From: Bdellovibrionales bacterium
Lineage (GTDB): Bacteria > Bdellovibrionota > Bdellovibrionia > Bdellovibrionales > UBA1609
Direction: 5' to 3'
DNA length: 64,000 nt
NCBI GenBank assembly: GCA_028819305.1
Contig: JAPPLY010000056.1
Coordinates: forward strand, 14,800-78,799
Under the pieces are notes generated by a model that saw only the letters and a program-made list of their open reading frames with translations, was not told the DNA's origin and searched no databases. Of the stretch, positions 8,316 to 64,000 are shown piece by piece (the stretch's first letter is position 1; each line of letters starts with the position of its first letter). A program made the position numbers and the translations under genes.

Positions 8316-9935
8316 GTGAAAACAAAAATAGAGAGAGTTTCTTCCTCCCCCGCACCTGAAAAAAAAACGAACATCCAGGCAGCTCCTCCTCCGCTCACTC
8401 CCACTTATCAAAAATTAAAAGAGCTAAGGAAAAAAAATAAAGCCGCTTTAAACAATTCAGGGAAAGAACAAATCCGAGGAAGCTGTCTTACGGCCCGGGA
8501 ACGTTTAAACTTATTACTAGACCCAGGTAGCTTTACGGAACTAGACCGTTTTATTATACATCGTTCCTCTTATTTTGATATGCAAAAAAAACAAATCCCG
8601 GGGGATGGAGTTATAACTGGGTATGGAAAAATAAATCGTCGAAAAGTTTTTGTCTATAGTCAGGATTTCACTGTTTTTGGTGGAAGTATGTCACGCACTC
8701 AAGCTAATAAAATTCTAAAAATAATGAACCTAGCTCTTAAAAATGGAGCACCTATTATTGGACTTAAAGACTCAGGAGGAGCCCGTATTCAAGAAGGTGT
8801 AGCCGCTTTAGGAGGATATGGAGATATTATGCGTTTAAATGTGCGTCTTTCCGGGGTAGTGCCACAAATTAGCGCCATCATGGGACCTTGTGCGGGAGGA
8901 GCGGTCTATTCTCCGGCTTTAGCCGACTTTATATTTATGGTGGATAACTCCAGCTATATGTTCTTAACAGGCCCTGAAGTTATTAAAGCTGTCACTCATG
9001 AAGAAATTAGTAAAGAAGATCTGGGCGGGGCAAAAACACATACGGAAAAGTCAGGTATAGCTCACTTTGCCTGTCAAAATGACAAACAGTGTTTAATGAT
9101 GATCCGCACTCTCTTAAGTTTTTTGCCAGATAATAATTTAGATGACCCTTTTCATCAGGAAAGCAAAGATCCTGTGGAAAGACGCTCCGAAATCTTAAAC
9201 CAGATTATTCCAGATCAACCAAAGAAACCTTATGATATGAAAGCCGTCATTAAAGAAGTAATAGATGATTCTTTCTTCTTAGAACTAAAAGAAAAATTTG
9301 CTCCCAATATTATTACCGGATTTGCCCGTTTAAATGGTCATAGTGTAGGTATTGTGGCTAATCAACCTCAAGTGCTCGCTGGATGTATTAATATTGCTGC
9401 CAGTCAGAAAGCAGCTCGTTTTATCCGTCTGTGTGATTGCTTTAACATCCCTATCATCAGCTTTGTAGATGTGCCGGGGTTTTTACCTGGCACAGACCAA
9501 GAACATGGAGCTGTTATCTCCCATGGAGCTAAACTTCTTTATGCTTATGCAGAAGCATCTGTACCTAAAATCACTCTCATCACACGAAAAGCTTACGGGG
9601 GAGCTTATATAGTTATGGGGTCCAAGCATTTAGGGGGAGATCTTAATTTCGCCTATCCCAGTGCAGAAATTGCCGTTATGGGAGCAGAAGGAGCTGTTAA
9701 CATCATCGCCAGGAAACAAATAAAACAAGCTTCTGACCCGGAAAAAGAAAGAATAAAGCAAACAAAAAAATATGAAATGATTTTTAATAATCCTTATAGA
9801 GCGGCGGAACTAGGCTACATTGATGCTGTTATTGAACCTTCCCAAACCAGAGAACATATAATAGGAGCCTTAGAGATTCTACAAAATAAAAGAGAAAAAA
9901 TGGCAGAAAAAAAACACGGTAATATTCCTTTATAA
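8316..9935 (+). CDS. pccB: Acyl-CoA carboxylase carboxyltransferase subunit (propionyl-CoA carboxylase beta / methylmalonyl-CoA carboxyltransferase family)
   Basis: 539-aa ORF (GTG start) with both carboxyltransferase halves, e.g. GGARIQEG and GPCAGGAVYSPA. Confidence 0.85.
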   Translation: MKTKIERVSSSPAPEKKTNIQAAPPPLTPTYQKLKELRKKNKAALNNSGKEQIRGSCLTARERLNLLLDPGSFTELDRFIIHRSSYFDMQKKQIPGDGVITGYGKINRRKVFVYSQDFTVFGGSMSRTQANKILKIMNLALKNGAPIIGLKDSGGARIQEGVAALGGYGDIMRLNVRLSGVVPQISAIMGPCAGGAVYSPALADFIFMVDNSSYMFLTGPEVIKAVTHEEISKEDLGGAKTHTEKSGIAHFACQNDKQCLMMIRTLLSFLPDNNLDDPFHQESKDPVERRSEILNQIIPDQPKKPYDMKAVIKEVIDDSFFLELKEKFAPNIITGFARLNGHSVGIVANQPQVLAGCINIAASQKAARFIRLCDCFNIPIISFVDVPGFLPGTDQEHGAVISHGAKLLYAYAEASVPKITLITRKAYGGAYIVMGSKHLGGDLNFAYPSAEIAVMGAEGAVNIIARKQIKQASDPEKERIKQTKKYEMIFNNPYRAAELGYIDAVIEPSQTREHIIGALEILQNKREKMAEKKHGNIPL

Positions 9936-50026: not shown

Positions 50027-51448
50027 TTAGAGGTTTTTAACAGGAAAGATTTTTTTGTGGATAAGTTTTCTTAACTCTTTGAGATCACTTGTTATTTTTG
50101 GCTTTTTCTTTTCGATTACTTTTAAACTGTGTAATATAGTGCTGTGGTTTCTATTTCCAAAAAGATACCCTAGTTCTTTTAAGGATAAGTTTAAGTCTTT
50201 TCTAGCCAGGTAAATAGCGATATTTCGAGCATAGACAATATGTTGCGCTCGAGAAGAAGATTTTAGCTCAGATGCTTTGATGTGGAAATAGGCACAAACT
50301 TCTTTTAGAACAAGACTGAAGTTAGAATTTTTGGAAAAAGAGGGGGAATTTGCTGTGAGAGGAGAAGGAAGGGAGGGGATTTCCTTACAAAAAAGGTGTT
50401 GAACAACCTCTAAGCACAGGGCTTTATTTTGTAAATCACAAAACATTTTCACTTTATTTAAATGTCCTTCTATTTCTCTAATGGAGTTTGTGGGAATATG
50501 AGATATGTAGGAAAGAACCTCTTCAGGAAGGCCGGTTTGCCAATTTAGGGCCTTACTTTTTATAATGGCTTTTTTAGTATCTTTATCCGGAGTTTGGATA
50601 TCTGCTATGACTCCTCCTTCAAAGCGAGTTTTGATTCTATTTTTTAAGCCTTTAATATCTTTTGGTTTTTGATCGCTAGCTAAAACCAGCTGACACTTTG
50701 CTGATTTTAAACTTTCAAAGGTATGGAAAAATTCGTCTTGGATACTTTCCCCTTTCCCTAGGATTTGAATATCATCTAATAAGAGCACTTGAATATTTTT
50801 TCTGTATTTCTGACGAAACATCTCCATTTCATTTTTGCGAATATGATTGATACAATCATTGAAAAATCGTTCTGCAGGGAGATAGAGCACTTTTAAATGT
50901 GGTTTTTCTTTTTCAAGACGATTTCCAATAGCGTGCAGTAAATGTGTCTTTCCGTGTCCAGAAGGGCCATAGATAAATAAAGGATTAGAGTTATTATTAA
51001 AAGGTCTTTCAGCAATGCTTTTAGCTAAAGAATAGGCAAAAGAATTGCTAGAACCTTGTATAAAAGAGGAAAAGGTCCATTGTGGATAAAAAGTGCTGTT
51101 TTTTGTTATCTTTTTATAATTTTTATGAGGAGGCTTAAAAAAAAAAGGGGGGGGGTCTTTCAAGATCTTATTTGATAAGATGGGGGTCTGTTTTTGTATA
51201 TCAACAGCTGGGAAGGCGCCCTCTTTGTTTTTTATTTGTGTTTGAATGAAAAACAGGTGTTTTTGTAAAATTTCCTGGTGAAAAGAAGAAGGGACTTTAA
51301 GAGTAAAGTGTTTTTTTCCCTCGAGAGCCTGGCTCTCCAGGGTTACCGTATCTAAAACAGATTTAAGTAGTTTTTCTTGAAGTGTTTTCTGTAATGTGTC
51401 TTTTATCTGATTCCAAAGATGCTGTTCTGACAAAAGGGCCTCCATCAA
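50027..51448 (-). CDS. dnaA: Chromosomal replication initiator DnaA
   Basis: AAA+ Walker A GPSGHGKTHLL; C-terminal DnaA-box-binding domain (FGNRNHSTILHS). Confidence 0.93.
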   Translation of the reverse strand: MMEALLSEQHLWNQIKDTLQKTLQEKLLKSVLDTVTLESQALEGKKHFTLKVPSSFHQEILQKHLFFIQTQIKNKEGAFPAVDIQKQTPILSNKILKDPPPFFFKPPHKNYKKITKNSTFYPQWTFSSFIQGSSNSFAYSLAKSIAERPFNNNSNPLFIYGPSGHGKTHLLHAIGNRLEKEKPHLKVLYLPAERFFNDCINHIRKNEMEMFRQKYRKNIQVLLLDDIQILGKGESIQDEFFHTFESLKSAKCQLVLASDQKPKDIKGLKNRIKTRFEGGVIADIQTPDKDTKKAIIKSKALNWQTGLPEEVLSYISHIPTNSIREIEGHLNKVKMFCDLQNKALCLEVVQHLFCKEIPSLPSPLTANSPSFSKNSNFSLVLKEVCAYFHIKASELKSSSRAQHIVYARNIAIYLARKDLNLSLKELGYLFGNRNHSTILHSLKVIEKKKPKITSDLKELRKLIHKKIFPVKNL

Positions 51449-51495
51449 GTTTTATTTAGGGCATAAAAAGTCATAAAGCTATCATAAACCTCTGC

Positions 51496-51525
51496 TTGAC
51501 GAGAAGAGCCAAAACATGCTTTTAT
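51496..51525 (+). promoter_or_regulatory. Possible rpmH promoter
   Basis: TTGACG at 51496-51501, 18-nt spacer, TGc-TTTTAT extended -10 at 51517-51525; by eye only. Confidence 0.3.
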
Positions 51526-51565
51526 TATGCGTCAATAGACTTTTTATTATCTGGAGAAGGAAAAA

Positions 51566-51715
51566 GTGAAAAGGACATATCAGCCTAGTCGTAAAAAAAG
51601 AAGCCGTTCTCATGGATTTCGTGCTCGAATGGAAGAAAAAAGTGGGCAACAAGTATTAAATCGCAGAAGAAATAAGGGGCGCAAACACCTATCTGTTTCT
51701 GTTTCCAGTAAATAG
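51566..51715 (+). CDS. rpmH: 50S ribosomal protein L34
   Basis: Not in the ORF track (49 aa). GTG start; translates to [44 protein letters not shown]..., the classic L34 sequence. Confidence 0.9.
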
Positions 51716-51790
51716 AAATCTTTTTATACCGAGCTGGCATGAGAAAAGATGTCCTTTTGAGTTTTTTCATTAAAAACTCAGGTTTCTTTG

Positions 51791-51890
51791 GGAGAAAAAA
51801 GAAACGACCGGAAGTCTCTATCCTCGATTTCTTGCGCCCGCTTTCGCGAGGCCAGGCTTTCGCGAGGATCAAACCTGGATTGGTATCATA
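51791..51890 (+). repeat. Intergenic repeat X3 (rpmH-rnpA spacer)
   Basis: Colinear with the reverse complement of 41160-41262; includes a tandem GCTTTCGCGAGG x2 (51840-51851, 51856-51867). Confidence 0.6.
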
Positions 51891-51936
51891 CAAAAAAGGT
51901 AGAAACTATTTTAATTCTTTGCTTTATATTGTAAAA

Positions 51937-52269
51937 ATGTGGGTTTCCTTAAAGAAAAAGAAAGATTTTATTTTACTTAAGAAAAAAGGAAAGTATTTAA
52001 AGAAACAAAGTTTTTTTATTGTATATCGAAAAAACGGTCTTTCTTATAGTCGTATAGCTTTATTTTTTCCAAAATGGGTAGGCAAGGCTGTTCAAAGAAA
52101 TAAATTTAAAAGATGGGCGCGTCATTTTGTGGCAAAACAAAAGGGGGAGGAAGGTTTGGATATACTATTGGGATTAAAAAAAAGAGAGCGGTCTTTTTAT
52201 AAGAATATGAAATATAAAGATTTTTACTCTGGGTTTGAGCGAGTTTTTAAAGATATTGAGTTTGAGTAA
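51937..52269 (+). CDS. rnpA: Ribonuclease P protein component
   Basis: Start moved to ATG 51937 ([11 protein letters not shown]), giving 110 aa with the [16 protein letters not shown]-type motif; the track's upstream extension covers repeat X3. Confidence 0.8.
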
Positions 52270-52270
52270 C

Positions 52271-52531
52271 ATGAGGTATTTATCTTTAGTATGTCTTTTT
52301 CTTATAAAAGTGTATAAAGTGTTTCTCTCCGTTCATTTTGGGGGAGCTTGTCGGTTCCATCCCTCTTGTTCCTGCTATGCCGAAAGGGCTTTTTTAAAAC
52401 ATCCTTTTTTTCCAGCTTTTTTTTTAGTTTTAAAAAGATTAGCTAAATGTCATTTTTGGGGGCCTTTTGGTTTAGACCCTCTGCCTGTGTCCTCCTTTTC
52501 AAAGGAGAAAAAGGACCCTGTTTCTTATTGA
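52271..52531 (+). CDS. yidD: Membrane protein insertion efficiency factor YidD
   Basis: [11 protein letters not shown] motif; start placed at ATG 52271. Confidence 0.85.
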
Positions 52532-56166: not shown

Positions 56167-56222
56167 GTAGTTACTTCTGAAAAAGTCTTATAATTTTATT
56201 TATAGTTTTGTTATTTTAGATG

Positions 56223-56310
56223 TCATTCCCGCGAAAGCGGGAATCTAGTGTTTGTAAAATCATGGGATGAAGTGGACTATGTATCATCCACGAGGAAGCG
56301 AGAATCTAGT
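56223..56310 (+). repeat. Two tandem 27-nt hairpin repeats (ATTCCC-N8-GGGAAT type)
   Basis: TCATTCCCGCGAAAGCGGGAATCTAGT at 56223-56249 and a degenerate copy TCATCCACGAGGAAGCGAGAATCTAGT at 56284-56310 (22/27 identical). Confidence 0.8.
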
Positions 56311-56348
56311 AGCTACGAGGAGAATAATTTATTAGTAAATGTATCCTT

Positions 56349-56516
56349 CCTTCAGGAAAACAGATTTGCCTCTATATGGGGCTTTGCCTCTCGGGACGGC
56401 CCTTGTCTTCCTTAGTAGGAAGCCAATAGCCTTGGACCCCAACCGGCAAACTGTTTTCCTGTAAGGACATTTATACAGGAAGGCAAATTATTGCTTTCCT
56501 GTCCCGCGAAAGCGGG
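56349..56516 (+). repeat. Nested imperfect inverted repeats and hairpins (structured non-coding segment)
   Basis: Arms 56349-56370 and 56445-56466 pair over ~21 bp with two 1-nt bulges; 12-bp-stem hairpin 56475-56502 (one mismatch, loop ATTA); CCCGC-GAAA-GCGGG hairpin 56503-56516. Confidence 0.75.
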
Positions 56517-56716
56517 GAACGGGGACGCAAGGGAAGGGTTTCAAAAGGCAAAAATAACTGAACCGTTCAACAAAAAACCACTTTTGCTTCCCGTTACTAA
56601 CCGCTTTTGCCCTCTCCTAACCGGAGTTTCCCGTAAAGATTTGTCGTATTTTTTCGGCCCGAACTCTTCTTCTCATAGAATCTCTAATTTTTATATTTTT
56701 TCTTGTATTCGTCAAA

Positions 56717-57559
56717 ATGTCGAGTATAATAAAAAATATGAAAACAGGAAGTATTACATTAGGTCCTTTAGAGACGCAGTTTTTTGCATGGACTCAATTG
56801 GAAAATAAAGAACAAGTTAAAACAGGAGACTTTGCGAGAGTAAAAGGTCTTTCTGCCAAACAGGAAGCAGATTTACTTTATAATTTGTCTTCCAGTGGAA
56901 TCATTGTAAAACTCTGGCGAGGTCTCTATCTGGTGCCTCCAAGAATCCCTTTAGGTGGTAGTTGGTCTCCTTCTCCTTATCTAGTAATTAGTAAGTATAT
57001 GAGAAACTTGGATGCAAAATTTCAGATAAGTGGACCAGCCATATTTAACTTGTACGGATATTCTGATCAAGTATCTGCTTGGTTTACTGTGTATAATAAC
57101 AAAGTCTCTAAAAAACTGTATATACTTCAGTATCATTTGGATTTTGTGAAAGTTATTGAAAATCGATTGGGTGATATGAAAGAGCGAGCACCTTATGGAG
57201 TCAAAAAATCAGAACCGGCTTTAATTAGTTCCGCTGAACAAACCCTACTTGATGCTGTTTATGATTATAAAAAATATGGAACTTTACCTAAAGCTTATGA
57301 TTGGATAGCTATTACTGTACGAAATAAAAAAATCAGTCCAGAAAAGTTAGTGAATATAACCATTAAATACGGAAATACAATGAGTCAAAAAAGAATAGGT
57401 TGGGTACTGAATGAATTGGAAATTTCACAAAGGGTTATCAACCGATTAAAAAAGAAAATACCTAAAACAAAATTTTTAGTGCCACTTGACCCTAAAAATA
57501 ATGTAGGGCCTATAAATAAAAAGTGGGGAGTGATTGAAAATGTCAACCTTTTATCATGA
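56717..57559 (+). CDS. abiEi: AbiEi-family antitoxin/transcriptional regulator (type IV TA)
   Basis: 280-aa ORF; wHTH-like N-terminus ending LWRGLYLVPP; C-terminal LVPLDP...KKWGVIENV pattern typical of AbiEi; paired with AbiEii. Confidence 0.75.
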   Translation: MSSIIKNMKTGSITLGPLETQFFAWTQLENKEQVKTGDFARVKGLSAKQEADLLYNLSSSGIIVKLWRGLYLVPPRIPLGGSWSPSPYLVISKYMRNLDAKFQISGPAIFNLYGYSDQVSAWFTVYNNKVSKKLYILQYHLDFVKVIENRLGDMKERAPYGVKKSEPALISSAEQTLLDAVYDYKKYGTLPKAYDWIAITVRNKKISPEKLVNITIKYGNTMSQKRIGWVLNELEISQRVINRLKKKIPKTKFLVPLDPKNNVGPINKKWGVIENVNLLS

Positions 57560-58421
57560 AAATGAAATACAATTTGTGGAAGCGATCAGAGAGACTGCTA
57601 AAAATTCAGGATTTTCTGAATCTTTAATAGAAAAGGATTATTATTGCTCGCTCATTCTTAAAGAGATTTTTCGGTCAAAGGATTGTTTTTTAATTTTCAA
57701 GGGAGGCACTCTTCTCAATAAGTGCCATGTTGGATTTTATAGGTTAAGTGAGGACCTGGATTTTTCTGTTTCAGATCCAGCAAAATTCTCCAGAAAGAAA
57801 AGAAGTTACTTAGCTCAAGTTTCTAAAAAATGTGTGAATGAAACTGTTAAAAATCTATCTCTAGTTTTTTCAAGGTCGTTTGAAGGACACAACGAGAGTC
57901 GTTTATATAGTGCTGAAATAGGATATCACTCTTTAATTGATGAAGACAAGAAAACAATTAAAGTAGAATTTGGAATTCATGAAAAAGTTTGGGAAAGAGA
58001 GACTTTAAAGGCAAAAACTCTCCTTACAAATCCCATTTCACAAAAGCCTGTTCTGCCAGATTTTCATTTAGTAGGTTTAAGTCTTAAGGAAGCTTATAGT
58101 GAAAAGATTAGAGCGGCACTTTCCAGAGAAAAGCCAGCTATCAGAGATATTTTTGATATTCATTATGCTCTGAAAAGGCGTCTCATAGAAGAACCTCACG
58201 GTTTTATAAAAATTCATGATATTGCTCCAATGGTTAAATATAAAATGAAGATTTTAAACCGTGAAGCAGATTTATCTGCTGAACGAAAAAAAGAACTTTT
58301 AGATCAATTACAAACAGATTTGAAACCAGTGCTACGCCAAAAAGATTTTGAAGAGTTTGATTTTGAACAAGCATGGAACTGGTTAAAAATTCTTGAAAAA
58401 GAAATTGCTAAAAGTTTGTGA
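57540..58421 (+). CDS. abiEii: AbiEii/AbiGii-family nucleotidyltransferase toxin (DUF1814)
   Basis: FKGGTLLNKCH...RLSEDLDF nucleotidyltransferase motif. ATG 57540 preferred (GGAG 9 nt upstream) over the track's TTG 57534; overlaps the abiEi 3' end. Confidence 0.8.
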   Translation: MSTFYHENEIQFVEAIRETAKNSGFSESLIEKDYYCSLILKEIFRSKDCFLIFKGGTLLNKCHVGFYRLSEDLDFSVSDPAKFSRKKRSYLAQVSKKCVNETVKNLSLVFSRSFEGHNESRLYSAEIGYHSLIDEDKKTIKVEFGIHEKVWERETLKAKTLLTNPISQKPVLPDFHLVGLSLKEAYSEKIRAALSREKPAIRDIFDIHYALKRRLIEEPHGFIKIHDIAPMVKYKMKILNREADLSAERKKELLDQLQTDLKPVLRQKDFEEFDFEQAWNWLKILEKEIAKSL

Positions 58422-58504
58422 CAACTTAATAGGTTATTCCTAGTGACTTTCTTCAATATTTGCTACCATTAAGAATTTAGGTTAATAAAAAATTAAGGTG
58501 ACCC

Positions 58505-60256
58505 ATGTTTGTTCCGTATCTAAGTTCTTTGGAAACAAAGAACACGTATGATTTATTAACTTCTCCAGGCAACCTAGCTTTTTATGATGCTGTCGATATT
58601 TATTGTGTTTTCTACCTTCTTCCAGATGATCCAAATGCTTACAATCTGTTTTCATTATTAAATTTTTACGAAAGTCGAAGTGACCATAATTCATCTATTG
58701 TTAATCCTTATCCAATGAGGTGTCCACTTACCTTTAAGTTTTCTGGTAGGATAATAAAAATTGGTTTAAAAAAAATAACTGTAGGCTTACATACTTTTCA
58801 GACTCGGTTCTATGAATATTTAAAGACAAATTCCAATTGGAATCTCAATGGTTCCATATTAAACACAAATTCTCTTAAATTCATACCAAAGTTTTTTGTT
58901 CCTCCTGCTGATGGAACCTATGAATCACCTTTAAACAATATCCTAAAGAATAATTTTTTCAATGGATCGTACGTACTTGAACAATTTGACGAGGAAAAAA
59001 CATCTTTGGAACCATTCTTTCAAGACTCCAAAGAATTACTAAAGATTTCAGCAGAGATTCAAAAACACTGGCCATTAAAACTGGCAAAAATGACTGATCG
59101 ATTGGGAAATATTTTATATCAGTTTCCTATTACAGTATTCAGAAGTGATTTTCTTAATTCTTCAGATGAAAAATCTTATAAATGCACTTTTTCTTGGGAC
59201 TCAAGAGCAACTCCTTCAAACAGGGACTGTATTATTACTACTGTAAATAAAAATAGAGAAGAAAATCTAGTGAGTGCAAAAAGCTCTGTTCGTTTAAATG
59301 CTTCTCCACAAGAGATCGTAGTAGATAGCTTAAGGGGAAGACCTGTTCATTTTGTCTATGACATCACTAATGGATTAATTTTAGGAATGTCCTCAGATCA
59401 AACAATAAAAGCAGCCGATTTAAAATTAAATATTGAACGTCCTGAGCCTAGAATATTTGAAATAAATGGTAAGATCCATAAAGTCAATGTGTTTACACCT
59501 CATAATATTTCCGTTGGTACACCTTATTCAGACAATTATGTTGAATGGAGCAAAAGAAGGGTTTTTGAAGAAGAGACACACACTCTTGAGAAAACCCTAC
59601 AATTTAAACAATACGGTTTAGGAGATGAAGAGTCACGATCTACTGCTATAAAGGATATACGTCAGATTATAAACGAACATGCTAAGAAATCTAAGTCTGT
59701 TTATCTTTGGGACCCATATCTTGATGCAAAAGGTTTAAAAAATACTCTTTTTTTTATTGAAACTACTAATGTTGAATGTCGAGCAATCAGCTCCTCTAAA
59801 ACATTTCAGAGACAAGGAAGATTTACAATGCCCAACTTAGATACTTTATCAATTACTTTTCGTAAATGGTGGGATTTGAATATGAAGATATTCAAATCCA
59901 AAATTGGAAAAGCACACTCTAAAGAAAAGGGTGAATTAAGATTTAATCAGTGGAAACAAGATATGTGTGATGAGTTATCAGGAGGAAGTAGTAGCACTAA
60001 TAATTATCTGCTCAATTTGAAATTTAAATGTCAGTATGGTCGGTTTGGACGGCCATTTCATGATAGATTTATAATTTTTCCTATGGCTGACGGACATACA
60101 AAGTGTTGGTCAATAGGCACTTCCATAAATAGCCTTGGTAAAGCACACCACCATATAATTCAAGAAGTATCAAATGCAAAACAAATAGAAATGGCATTCG
60201 ATCAGCTTTGGCAAGAGTTACCAGATGATCCATGCTTGGTATGGAGTAGCACATGA
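58505..60256 (+). CDS. Unknown 583-aa protein with a C-terminal PLD/Nuc-like domain (HxR variant)
   Basis: SD AAGGTG before the ATG. C-terminal VYLWDPYL...ECRAISS...FHDRFIIFP...WSIGTSINSLG resembles a single HKD module with K->R and D->P. The N-terminal ~390 aa are unrecognised. Confidence 0.6.
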   Translation: MFVPYLSSLETKNTYDLLTSPGNLAFYDAVDIYCVFYLLPDDPNAYNLFSLLNFYESRSDHNSSIVNPYPMRCPLTFKFSGRIIKIGLKKITVGLHTFQTRFYEYLKTNSNWNLNGSILNTNSLKFIPKFFVPPADGTYESPLNNILKNNFFNGSYVLEQFDEEKTSLEPFFQDSKELLKISAEIQKHWPLKLAKMTDRLGNILYQFPITVFRSDFLNSSDEKSYKCTFSWDSRATPSNRDCIITTVNKNREENLVSAKSSVRLNASPQEIVVDSLRGRPVHFVYDITNGLILGMSSDQTIKAADLKLNIERPEPRIFEINGKIHKVNVFTPHNISVGTPYSDNYVEWSKRRVFEEETHTLEKTLQFKQYGLGDEESRSTAIKDIRQIINEHAKKSKSVYLWDPYLDAKGLKNTLFFIETTNVECRAISSSKTFQRQGRFTMPNLDTLSITFRKWWDLNMKIFKSKIGKAHSKEKGELRFNQWKQDMCDELSGGSSSTNNYLLNLKFKCQYGRFGRPFHDRFIIFPMADGHTKCWSIGTSINSLGKAHHHIIQEVSNAKQIEMAFDQLWQELPDDPCLVWSST

Positions 60257-61743
60257 ATGAAAGTTATTTACAGCTATTGTCCTATTGTATGGATATGCCC
60301 TATACAGGTGAAAATAATCAGGTTATTTTAGAAATGATTACTGCTATAGATAATCATATTATATCTGATACTAATTTTCTTGAAAACAAAAATTATGAAA
60401 GACTTTTTCAAATAGCAACACCATTTGCGATTTTAAGGTCAAAATACAGCTTACATAAAACAAAATCACCGATTGATTCAGATTTAAAGTTATTGATTTC
60501 TACTTTATCTTGGATCAAAAAAAGATCGTCATCTAACTTAAAGTCATTTATTATCTCATCTGTAATTCTGTCATGCTTAAGTGATCACTCATTAGAGTTT
60601 AATGAAATTGTTAGTGACGTTTTTGTAAACAAAGACAAATCTATCTTAGACCGCATATTAAATATCATTGAAAAGTTCAAACTTACTATGGGAGTACCAG
60701 ATAATGCTCCGCTATACGAAAAAGACAATGTCCAAAGATATTTGGACGCAAAGAAAAAGGGTGTTTATTCTAGTATGGCCAATTATTTGCAAAAGGCCGA
60801 AAAAGGTTCTGGTTTACCTCGTCCTTCTATACTTAAATATGCAATTCTCTATGTGATTAAGAATGATTTCAAACGTTTCCTCATTGTTTTAGATAAAAGA
60901 AACAGTCTTCTGGAAATCAATATACTGCTTAATTCGTTGTCGCTTGCACAGTTAGTTCAGATAGCAAAAATGACGAAAAGTAAACTGGTATACTTTGAAT
61001 TAACAAGATTGATATTTTCCAATGATCGTTCTACGAAACTTTCCGATAAAGAAAAATCTGATTTGGCAGAGTCTATTTGCATTTTTCTAAAAGAAAATGA
61101 GGAATGTAAATCTGAGTTTTTAAATTTTTTCTTTAAATACCCTCCTCGCTATTCATCCTTAATGGAGGTAACAGGCCAAGCAGTGACTAAGTATGGAAAA
61201 GGCTTATTATGTGATATTGTAAAAATTTTTCCGATGAATCTTTTATGCAAAGATCAGCTTGACCTTCTATTGAAGGGTATGCTTGATGGATTAGATTCAT
61301 CTGCTCGACATGATTTTTTAAGGGTAATATTTAAAGAATGGTTATCTTTTTATAACTCAAAATCTTTGAATCCAAATGGACTTTCTTTAAGTATTACATC
61401 AATGGCTGACGGAGTATGTCGTTACTTTTCACATATAAGTTCTGAAGCATATTTTAAATTTCTATGTGAGAGAATTGATTGTTTAAGTTCAATTGAAGAA
61501 ACATGGTATTCCATAAAAATTGACTTCTTAATCATTATTGAAAAAGAACTTTCACAGTTTGCTGTTGCGGCATTCGCATACGATAATAAGAAATTTATTC
61601 CGCCTGCAAAAAAGATTCAAAATAAAATTAAATATCTCTTTACTGATTTCTCCTACAAATATCAGTTTGATCTTACTAAAAATCAAAAACAGATGTTAAA
61701 TCAAATAAGACCTTTTTTCCATTGGGTAAATAGTCATCCATGA
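60253..61743 (+). CDS. Unknown 496-aa protein, partner of the PLD-like protein
   Basis: ATGA start/stop overlap with the upstream gene; Leu/Ile/Lys-rich helical-looking sequence; no catalytic, TM or DNA-binding motif recognised. Confidence 0.55.
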   Translation: MNESYLQLLSYCMDMPYTGENNQVILEMITAIDNHIISDTNFLENKNYERLFQIATPFAILRSKYSLHKTKSPIDSDLKLLISTLSWIKKRSSSNLKSFIISSVILSCLSDHSLEFNEIVSDVFVNKDKSILDRILNIIEKFKLTMGVPDNAPLYEKDNVQRYLDAKKKGVYSSMANYLQKAEKGSGLPRPSILKYAILYVIKNDFKRFLIVLDKRNSLLEINILLNSLSLAQLVQIAKMTKSKLVYFELTRLIFSNDRSTKLSDKEKSDLAESICIFLKENEECKSEFLNFFFKYPPRYSSLMEVTGQAVTKYGKGLLCDIVKIFPMNLLCKDQLDLLLKGMLDGLDSSARHDFLRVIFKEWLSFYNSKSLNPNGLSLSITSMADGVCRYFSHISSEAYFKFLCERIDCLSSIEETWYSIKIDFLIIIEKELSQFAVAAFAYDNKKFIPPAKKIQNKIKYLFTDFSYKYQFDLTKNQKQMLNQIRPFFHWVNSHP

Positions 61744-61847
61744 ATCTATTATAAGTAAAATATTCTAAAGATTTAAAGTTAAAAACCGATTTTATATTAA
61801 TCAAGATGATCTGAACTTTTGGAAGCTTTTGAGAAAAGTGGTAAAAT

Positions 61848-62324
61848 ATGAAGTGGTTAGTATATTTTTTGTTTATGTTCCCAAATATTCTTATTGGTTG
61901 TGCAACTAATTATCTAGGCCATGAAGCAAAATATATTAAAAATAAACGACAAAAAAAAGTATCGAGACAATATGCTGACAACAGTAGAGATTTTATTTTA
62001 CCTACATCAGAAGAATGGGAATGGCTTAAAAAAAATTATCAAACATACGATTCTCACTTTAAAAAGAAAGTATATAATTATAACCAACTACCAGATAAAA
62101 TTAAGTGGAAAATTTTTCATCTTCCTAAATATCTAAATCCAGATACTAGACCTAGAAACTGTGTTTTTGGAACAGCTGTTCAGGACTATGTTTCTGGTAA
62201 ATATGGTCAAAAACTTTCTAAAGAAGCTCAAATTAAATGCCTCAGAGGGATAAGAGATAGTCTTTTTCCTCCAGATAGAATAGGCTGTTTTAATAATACA
62301 TTAACGTTTAATTGTAGAAGATAA
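61848..62324 (+). CDS. Small Cys-containing lipoprotein, unknown function
   Basis: Signal peptide with lipobox LIGC; four further Cys residues. Confidence 0.5.
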   Translation: MKWLVYFLFMFPNILIGCATNYLGHEAKYIKNKRQKKVSRQYADNSRDFILPTSEEWEWLKKNYQTYDSHFKKKVYNYNQLPDKIKWKIFHLPKYLNPDTRPRNCVFGTAVQDYVSGKYGQKLSKEAQIKCLRGIRDSLFPPDRIGCFNNTLTFNCRR

Positions 62325-62348
62325 TTTTTACAGAAAAAAGAATTACTA

Positions 62349-62837
62349 GTGAATTTGAAATGTATATTTCCTTTCTTTTTATTTTTTTTCTTCTTAATAA
62401 GCTGTTCCGATGAGGAACATGACATATGGGACCCTGATGATCCTAGAAATGTTCCAAAAAACTGTCCTCTACAACCGGAGAGGAAGTGCCCAGAGTATTT
62501 TAAAAGGGTGGGGAAGGCTAGTCTTCTCTTAGTAGAAGCTAAAGACTCCTATGTAAAGAAAAGGGAACGCTTTAGAATAGATAATACCTATAATCATGAT
62601 CTACTCAATGAAATGTTAAAAGAAGAAGAGACACTTAATAAGTGTTTAGAAATAACTCCAATAGGGAATAAAGGGGAAAGACGAGAGTTTTTTGCTAAGA
62701 TGAACAATAGCAACTTACGAGCGGTGAATGAAACAGATAGGTCTTTTCAAGATAAATTAGCAGATCATTATTTACATCATGCAAATTGTTTTAAAGAAGC
62801 TGAAATAAAACTACAAAGGCTAATAGATAAACAATAA
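62349..62837 (+). CDS. Small Cys-containing lipoprotein, unknown function
   Basis: GTG start; signal peptide with lipobox LISC; five further Cys residues. Confidence 0.5.
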   Translation: MNLKCIFPFFLFFFFLISCSDEEHDIWDPDDPRNVPKNCPLQPERKCPEYFKRVGKASLLLVEAKDSYVKKRERFRIDNTYNHDLLNEMLKEEETLNKCLEITPIGNKGERREFFAKMNNSNLRAVNETDRSFQDKLADHYLHHANCFKEAEIKLQRLIDKQ

Positions 62838-62848
62838 GGAGAATTATT

Positions 62849-63223
62849 ATGACGAATTTTTTCTTAGCTTTTTTATTTTCTATTGCATTTTTAATCTGCT
62901 TTCACATTCCTGAATATAAAGATAACTTAATATTATACACCTTCATGATATGGCTATTACTTATATTGTATTTCGCTCCGACTGTTACAGTATGTTCAAA
63001 TCGAGACGATAAAACTCTTTGTGGAGTTAACTTTTCAAATATAATATTTATGTTTTTTGCAAATTTACTTTTCGGGTGGACTGTTTTAGGTTGAATTATA
63101 TGTATTGTTTTAGCTGTTACTACGGGAGAAAAGAAAAAAGAATTTAAAAAGATAAAAGACTTGACTCTTAAAGAACTGGAAGAGCTTAAAGCCTCTTTAA
63201 AAGAAAATAATGTGAACCAGTAA
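62849..63223 (+). pseudogene. Superinfection-immunity (Imm) family-like membrane protein gene interrupted by an in-frame TGA
   Basis: YFAPTV and NLLFGWTVLG-TGA-IICIVLAV match my recollection of the family pattern YFxP...NLxLGWTxxGW. The stop at 63092-63094 sits where Trp is expected, and the frame stays open for 42 more codons to TAA 63221-63223. Confidence 0.55.
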
Positions 63224-63355
63224 TAATAAAGACCGATACTCTTATTATTATGGATATAAAATATGATATGAAAGCTAGTATATCTCTGTTAAAATTTTAT
63301 ATAAATAAAGAATTAAAAATTAAGTCTTTTATAAAAACTAACCGATAGATTTTTT

Positions 63356-64000
63356 ATGAAGTACTTTTTAGTCTTTTTTTATCTTTTGTTTTTTTATTAT
63401 TTAGCAAATGCAGGAGAAATTCATAAAGCTGCTGAAAAAGGAGATATTAAGAAAGTATCTTCTTTCTTGAAGGTAGGAATTGATCCTGATTTGGTAAATG
63501 AAAATGGCGCAACACCTTTAAACTTTGCGATTCACGGTGGAAATCTGAAGATTGCTTCACTATTAATAAAGCATGGAGCGAAAGTAAATAATAACGAGAA
63601 ACTCCCCCCTTTAATTCAAGCTAGTGCGTTGGGTCACTTAGAGTTTGTTTCACTTCTGTTAAAATATGGAGCAAATGTTAACACTAAAATTAAAGGTTCC
63701 AATGGTACTGCTCTACATTCAAGTGTGCTTAGTGAATCGAAACTTGAATATCAAATCAAAGAACTTCGTAGTAAGGGCATGAAAGTAAGATCAAAAGAAG
63801 TTACTTTACTCTTGCTTAAAAATGGAGCAAATGTCAATGCTAAAAATAAGAATGGTGTAACTCCTCTGTATTTCGTACTCTCTGCAGAGATTGCTACACT
63901 TCTACTTAAGTATGGAGCTAGAGCGAGTGTTAATGTTAAAACTAAAGAAGGAGACAGGAACCGAACTCATTTTTCCCTCTTGTTGACAATGATTTTGAGA
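63356..64000 (+). CDS. Secreted ankyrin-repeat protein (3' end beyond the window)
   Basis: Not in the ORF track (no stop in the window). Signal peptide MKYFLVFFYLLFFYYLANA, then repeated ankyrin units (G.TPL..A...G.....LL.KHGA.VN). Confidence 0.8.
   Translation, partial: MKYFLVFFYLLFFYYLANAGEIHKAAEKGDIKKVSSFLKVGIDPDLVNENGATPLNFAIHGGNLKIASLLIKHGAKVNNNEKLPPLIQASALGHLEFVSLLLKYGANVNTKIKGSNGTALHSSVLSESKLEYQIKELRSKGMKVRSKEVTLLLLKNGANVNAKNKNGVTPLYFVLSAEIATLLLKYGARASVNVKTKEGDRNRTHFSLLLTMILR

Follow-up and report, generated by a model that had tools for sequence, protein, structure and literature searches.

A premature TGA codon at an invariant tryptophan position of a divergent Imm_superinfect-family gene in a Bdellovibrionales accessory island

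The locus and its island

The window, that is, the whole 64 kb stretch of DNA analysed here, lies within ENA scaffold ROBB21-1_SAMN13943215_METAG-scaffold_641 (assembly ERZ23495468) and carries dnaA, rpmH, rnpA, yidD, yidC, jag, and mnmE. Its MnmE, 85% identical to that of the best GTDB representative, marks the organism as an uncultured member of the Bdellovibrionales. The genes dnaA (on the minus strand), rpmH, rnpA, and yidD are found at 50027-52531, and the lowest point of the cumulative GC skew lies near 50 kb. These genes and the skew minimum together indicate that the window spans the chromosomal replication origin region and that the island described below is situated close to the origin.

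The island contains AbiEi, AbiEii, two proteins of 583 and 496 aa of unknown function, two predicted lipoproteins, a broken Imm-like gene (subject of our study), and an ankyrin-repeat gene. The features are as follows.

56167..64000, plus strand: accessory island of about 7.9 kb between mnmE and mnmG, whose sequence extends on the parent scaffold as far as about 64065 (L002 3319-11217)
56717-57559: AbiEi, member of an abortive-infection pair
57534-58421: AbiEii, member of the same abortive-infection pair
58505-60256 and 60253-61743, plus strand: two large genes (583 aa and 496 aa) with an ATGA overlap, directly after AbiEii
62349..62837, plus strand: predicted lipoprotein of 162 aa with a signal peptide ending FLISC, the conserved partner directly upstream of the Imm-like gene
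62836..62841, plus strand: Shine-Dalgarno sequence AAGGAG, 7 nt 5' of the ATG and sharing bases with the upstream gene's stop codon, as read directly from the DNA
62849..63094, plus strand: ORF for a membrane protein of the Imm_superinfect family, cut short to 81 codons and TGA
63092..63094, plus strand: premature TGA at the W82 column (W55 of T4 Imm), where the homologue has TGG; G-to-A transition at 63094
63095..63223, plus strand: in-frame remainder of the gene, which covers what is left of the final membrane helix together with a helical, charged tail (EKKKEFKKIKDLTLKELEELKASLKENNVNQ), 42 codons and TAA
63357..64000, plus strand, running to about 64045: ankyrin-repeat gene of 229 aa with a signal peptide, downstream of the Imm-like gene

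The earlier note on this DNA had described the gene as prophage-type cargo. The setting is not a prophage but an accessory, defence-type island of the size given above, with AbiEi and AbiEii. The 583-aa and 496-aa proteins have no match in Pfam or PHROG and only marginal ones in PADLOC (E about 3e-4); given their neighbourhood, they may constitute an undescribed defence pair. The 162-aa lipoprotein was without a match in Pfam, PHROG, or PADLOC. Among six related Bdellovibrionales genomes, five have mnmG immediately 3' of mnmE, and no Imm homologue was present in the mnmE-mnmG flanks examined of any of the six.

Several short sequence elements were observed in the spacers of the island. The spacer that separates mnmE from abiEi, on the island's left edge, contains the palindrome TCCCGCGAAAGCGGG in two exact copies (56227-56241 and 56502-56516) at a distance of 275 nt; these could be hairpin terminators or repeat elements. 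Just before the ankyrin gene is a conserved leader, AACTAAC(C)GATAG(A/G)TTTTTTATGAAG, found at 63335-63359 in the window and at 8553-8577 in the related locus L001, with a similar one in locus L004. It has no obvious Shine-Dalgarno sequence. The motif AACCGATAG, located 3' of the Imm-like gene, was considered as a recombination site and rejected: its exact form occurs once in the window, which is within chance expectation, and it is the conserved leader of the ankyrin gene, preceding that gene in L001 as well. The tail and the spacer 3' of it together form an inverted repeat of 20 nt, which seems not to be conserved in L004 and was taken as a chance product of AT-rich DNA.

The reading frame of the Imm-like gene begins with the ATG at 62849 and has 81 sense codons, up to ...NLLFGWTVLG (FANLLFGWTVLG), followed by TGA at 63092-63094. 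Past the TGA the frame is open for another 42 sense codons (IICIVLAVTTGEKKKEFKKIKDLTLKELEELKASLKENNVNQ; IICIVLAVTTGEKKKEF...NVNQ) and is closed by TAA at 63221-63223, with coordinates and sequence exactly as the earlier note had given them. The start signals (Shine-Dalgarno sequence and ATG) are undamaged. At the local base composition, an open extension of 42 codons has a chance of about 5%, so its length is not significant alone, and it is homology that settles the matter. When compared with the C-terminus of the full-length homologue P0001, the extension shows 72% identity overall, with 26 of the 29 tail residues identical. An in-frame restart 3' of the TGA was considered and rejected, as the stretch from the TGA to the tail has no ATG, GTG, or TTG preceded by a Shine-Dalgarno sequence. 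By our own reading of the sequence, the only ATG close by (63100-63102) belongs to a different frame, which stays open for about 15 codons.

Family relationships, the tryptophan column, and related loci

Close relatives of the protein are very few. A search of 5.8 billion proteins returned two, the window's own 81-aa product and P0001 (123 aa, 72% identity), and an exhaustive HMMER search with P0001 against 1.84 billion representatives contributed a further 19 distant homologues together with a fragment of 54 aa. No further relatives were found in JGI metagenomes, searched with the tail DNA pattern and with the protein, or in IMG/VR. Relatives of one homologue, P0005, occur in 1,227 phage records, T-even phages annotated Imm among them.

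With Trp restored in place of the stop, the window protein scored 25.4 bits (E 1.3e-5) against the Pfam profile PF14373, Imm_superinfect, for which the gathering cut-off is 27.9. The match comprises residues 64-90, corresponding to profile positions 16-42 of 42, and thus spans the stop. The stop removes positions 34-42 of the profile, and the truncated product scored 15.0 bits versus 25.4 with the Trp in place. The same profile was matched by 21 of the 22 sequences of our alignment (E <= 0.001, best E 2.4e-20), namely by the 20 distant homologues and the repaired window protein, the one sequence without a match being either P0001 or the P0004 fragment. In PHROG, the window protein matched the family phrog_1039, 'immunity to superinfection', at E 4e-10.

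The conserved core motif of the family, YFxP...R...N-L-x-x-G-W-T-x-x-G-W, is present in the window protein, and its last Trp corresponds to the TGA codon. The earlier note had given the motif as YFxP...N-L-x-L-G-W-T-x-x-G-W, which is correct, the family consensus being LYFxPT...R...NLLFGWTxLGW. Residues Y41, P44, N72, G76, W77, T78, and W82 are invariant across the 20 homologues. Alignment with the Imm proteins of phages T4 and JS10 places T4 R33 at R52, W50 at W77, and W55 at the TGA codon, and the residues common to the window protein and these two are Y41, P44, R52, F69, L74, W77, G81, and W82. By its motif, the gene is placed as a divergent relative of the Imm_superinfect and phrog_1039 families.

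The AF2 model of P0001 is all helical (mean pLDDT 82), with helices to residue 75, a GWT loop at 76-78, and one long helix at 79-122. On this model, a stop at position 82 would remove essentially the entire last helix. A Foldseek search of BFVD gave Serratia phage PS2 Imm as the top match, at a non-significant level (E 0.46, TM 0.58 on target).

Codon 82 is TGA in the window and TGG in the orthologue at L001 (P0001, the sole close homologue). All 20 homologues, as well as T4 Imm (W55) and JS10 Imm, have Trp in this column. The earlier note had expected a conserved Trp at the TGA, one transition away from TGG; alignment with the homologues and with the Imm_superinfect profile confirmed the column, which is invariant, and the look at related strains that it had suggested gave TGG in the closest homologue. 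We found no homologue that naturally ends at this position or has another residue in place of the Trp, and no family member in the library of 1.8 billion representatives stops there. A scan of GTDB genomes with the Imm alignment yielded no further relatives in which the TGA might recur. The affected Trp is equivalent to T4 W55, five residues past W50, and the locus thus represents a natural truncation variant of the family. The gene also pins down a very rare, divergent Imm-family branch, of which the 5.8 billion proteins searched contain a single intact homologue and which is linked to a lipoprotein partner and an ankyrin gene on mobile islands.

In L001 the lipoprotein-Imm pair is found again at 83% DNA identity, with the lipoprotein, 83-84% identical, likewise directly upstream of Imm. 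There the intact module of ankyrin gene, lipoprotein, and Imm (L001 8572-11424) adjoins a 153-aa phage-integrase fragment and a tRNA-Val gene. An integrase beside a tRNA gene is the usual signature of an integrative island, and these two neighbours suggest that the module travels on integrative elements. The position of the ankyrin gene varies: in L001 it precedes the module, and in the window and in locus L087 it follows it.

Homologues of the 162-aa lipoprotein are also present in L004, L087, and L088, and the sequence next to them differs from locus to locus. In L004 (1-686; ENA ERZ23495085 scaffold_519720) the membrane part of Imm is swapped for about 150 nt of unrelated sequence, which has no relative among the sequences compared, and the 30-residue tail (KKKEFKKIKDLTLKELEELKASLKENNINQQ) survives with hardly any change in an ORF of 54 aa whose N-terminus is new. 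Locus L087 (6001-7738) has no Imm, and the space from the lipoprotein to the ankyrin gene is taken up by other small ORFs. In L088 (3765-4777) there is no Imm after the lipoprotein, which is found as two tandem copies amid IS elements. The slot beside the partner lipoprotein behaves as a variable cargo position. As the Imm gene is replaced in L004 and absent from L087, from L088, and from the mnmE-mnmG region of relatives, it is evidently dispensable and often lost in this lineage.

Interpretation of the TGA codon

The first question is whether UGA is a stop codon here at all. Recoding of UGA, be it local or genome-wide, by genetic code 4 or 25 or by selenocysteine, has a sole point in its favour, an in-frame TGA ahead of conserved coding sequence, and we consider it extremely improbable. 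TGA closes 16 of the 51 long ORFs in the window, several of them at ATGA gene overlaps, and TGG makes up 215 of 18,657 codons (1.15%). Conserved genes, including YidC, MnmE, and DnaA, are full length under table 11. Merging of ORFs with TGA as a sense codon revealed no other split gene within the 64 kb, the candidates inspected being neighbouring genes or non-coding extensions. As for selenocysteine, no hairpin or other RNA structure was detected 3' of the stop, where the folding energy equals that of shuffled controls (z = -0.06, -0.08); Rfam gave no SECIS or other match past the stop; and the homologues carry Trp at this position, not Cys or Sec. Because the orthologue has TGG, TGA usage is ordinary, and an RNA signal is absent, a code change and selenocysteine are both rejected, and within the limits of the 64 kb window they are ruled out. 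The earlier note had doubted that TGA stands for Trp throughout the genome, a doubt upheld by the TGA-ended ORFs, the TGG usage, and the absence of any other split gene. The locus gives no evidence of a variant genetic code in Bdellovibrionales.

A second question is whether the base itself is real. The A at 63094 could result from an error in sequencing or in the consensus, or the assembler could have fixed a minority allele; the true codon would then be TGG and the 124-aa gene intact. The source is a metagenome-assembled scaffold and the remainder of the gene is wholly undamaged, as such an error would predict. However, the ENA assembly ERZ23495468 and the Logan assembly of SRR10996925 are 100% identical over 10,028 nt, TGA included. 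Since two assemblers yield the same base, an assembly artefact is unlikely; the two assemblies probably share the same reads, and their agreement counts against an artefact of the assembler, leaving read-level bias or polymorphism unaffected. Indirect evidence comes from a Bdellovibrionales MAG at NCBI (locus tag OXM55_05660) which encodes the neighbouring lipoprotein at 99% identity (P0023): the search of 5.8 billion proteins contained no full-length 124-aa Imm protein from that MAG or from elsewhere, which fits an Imm gene that is broken there too. On balance, we regard an erroneous base as decidedly unlikely.

The selection acting on the two parts of the gene is informative about the age of the stop. 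Compared with L001, dN/dS is 0.65 upstream of the stop, 0.19 downstream of it, and 0.047 in the charged tail (codons 94-122). With L004 as a third relative by which the tail changes were assigned to lineages, six changes are private to the window, and all six are synonymous; the neutral probability of this outcome is 3e-5 to 7e-4, varying with the transition bias. We roughly estimate that the window branch has about 0.4 changes per synonymous site and that the tail contains about 65-70 non-synonymous sites. At those rates, about 25 amino-acid changes would be expected if the tail had always been neutral, and none was found, from which it follows, again as a rough estimate, that an untranslated period would occupy at most about the last tenth of the branch. 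Downstream of the TGA there are no frameshifts, further stops, or excess amino-acid changes, and the relaxed selection expected of a pseudogene is not seen in the tail. This pattern points to strong purifying selection on the tail, which leaves two possibilities, a very young stop or a tail that continues to be translated. The word 'recent', which the earlier note had applied to the nonsense mutation, fits the six synonymous private changes.

The second of these possibilities needs to be considered in the light of what is known of UGA decoding. In E. coli, near-cognate decoding of UGA by tRNA-Trp competes with RF2 (PMC10570021), and the residue inserted at UGA is mostly Trp (PMC11903333). If UGA is read as Trp at a low rate here too, a trace of the exact wild-type protein would be likely irrespective of any selection, and such trace readthrough would rebuild the ancestral Imm-like protein. 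It is a further step to propose that the TGA is a functional leaky stop, at which wobble of Trp-tRNA(CCA) in competition with RF2 would yield some 124-aa ancestral protein, a low dose being tolerated or favoured and two products being made. Decoding of the UGA by tRNA-Trp would give back the wild-type residue, the start signals of the gene are undamaged, and the tail has the low dN/dS and the exclusively synonymous private changes that continued translation would leave, although a very young mutation predicts the same selection signal. The base after the TGA is A, which is not known to be the strongest termination context in E. coli; basal readthrough in bacteria, however, is normally low, and no stimulatory RNA structure is present past the TGA. 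The stop is also not conserved, as the sole close orthologue has TGG and the other family members have Trp, none of them (in 1.8 billion representatives) ending here, and the gene is readily lost among relatives. In terms of the features of programmed readthrough, conservation of the stop and a stimulatory element are absent and downstream coding conservation is present. We therefore consider a functional leaky stop unlikely. That the UGA is deliberately kept leaky, with a small and possibly condition-dependent dose of full-length Imm-like protein beside the truncated form, is very doubtful; if true, it would be a case of dosage control of a phage-exclusion membrane protein on a bacterial chromosome through stop-codon readthrough.

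The first possibility, a very young stop, is the one that we prefer: probably, a real and recent nonsense mutation inactivates or cripples a dispensable accessory gene. In this explanation, a very recent G-to-A transition would have changed TGG to TGA (63092-63094) at the invariant Trp of the divergent Imm_superinfect-family gene. Under the standard code, translation would mostly end after residue 81, giving a product without the last helix, which would comprise the second half of the NLLFGWTxLGW core and the charged helical tail. The gene would thereby be inactivated or strongly crippled, the loss of function being presumed from what the product lacks, and this dispensable island cargo would stand at the first step of pseudogene decay. 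Some observations argue for caution. Selection downstream of the stop is not relaxed (tail dN/dS 0.047), and a read-through stop would look alike; the Shine-Dalgarno sequence and start codon are intact; and the consensus base at 63094 may be erroneous or that of a minority. The short form also keeps the equivalents of T4 R33 and W50 (R52 and W77), so that it may have residual function. The locus should be annotated as a nonsense-disrupted Imm_superinfect-family gene and not as an 81-aa protein. Beyond correct annotation its import is small, a premature stop in island cargo being a known and common kind of event.

Comparison with known systems

The window gene and T4 Imm (UniProt P08986) both encode small, helical membrane proteins that share a conserved core. 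T4 Imm is a phage gene, whereas the window gene is chromosomal and belongs to a Bdellovibrionales accessory island, and its product carries two parts that are absent from T4 Imm, a further hydrophobic helix at the N-terminus and a charged, helical tail of about 30 residues. In relation to the Imm_superinfect family as a whole, it falls below the Pfam gathering cut-off and is broken at the invariant Trp. To our knowledge, no phage of this uncultured host is known. T4 Imm was reported to bind the tape-measure protein and thereby to block genome entry, and the substitutions R33A and W50A weaken exclusion (preprint 10.64898/2026.03.06.709160). By analogy, we infer for the intact protein the activity of T4 Imm, which would be to block the entry of incoming phage DNA at the membrane.

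The phage Qbeta A1 protein is an example of leaky UGA termination read by tRNA-Trp. The window gene resembles such leaky UGA cases (Qbeta A1; native readthrough in E. coli, PMC10570021) in having in-frame, coding-type conservation past the UGA and Trp as the residue expected there. In programmed readthrough, however, the stop is conserved among relatives, whereas the orthologue of the window gene, like the entire family, has a Trp codon in its place.

The window gene is similar to the nonsense pseudogenes of bacterial accessory and mobile DNA in that a single transition has created a stop in a dispensable island gene, and in that the gene is already missing or replaced at related loci. Unlike the usual nonsense pseudogene, it is free of secondary damage, and it would thus represent the earliest recognisable stage of this process.
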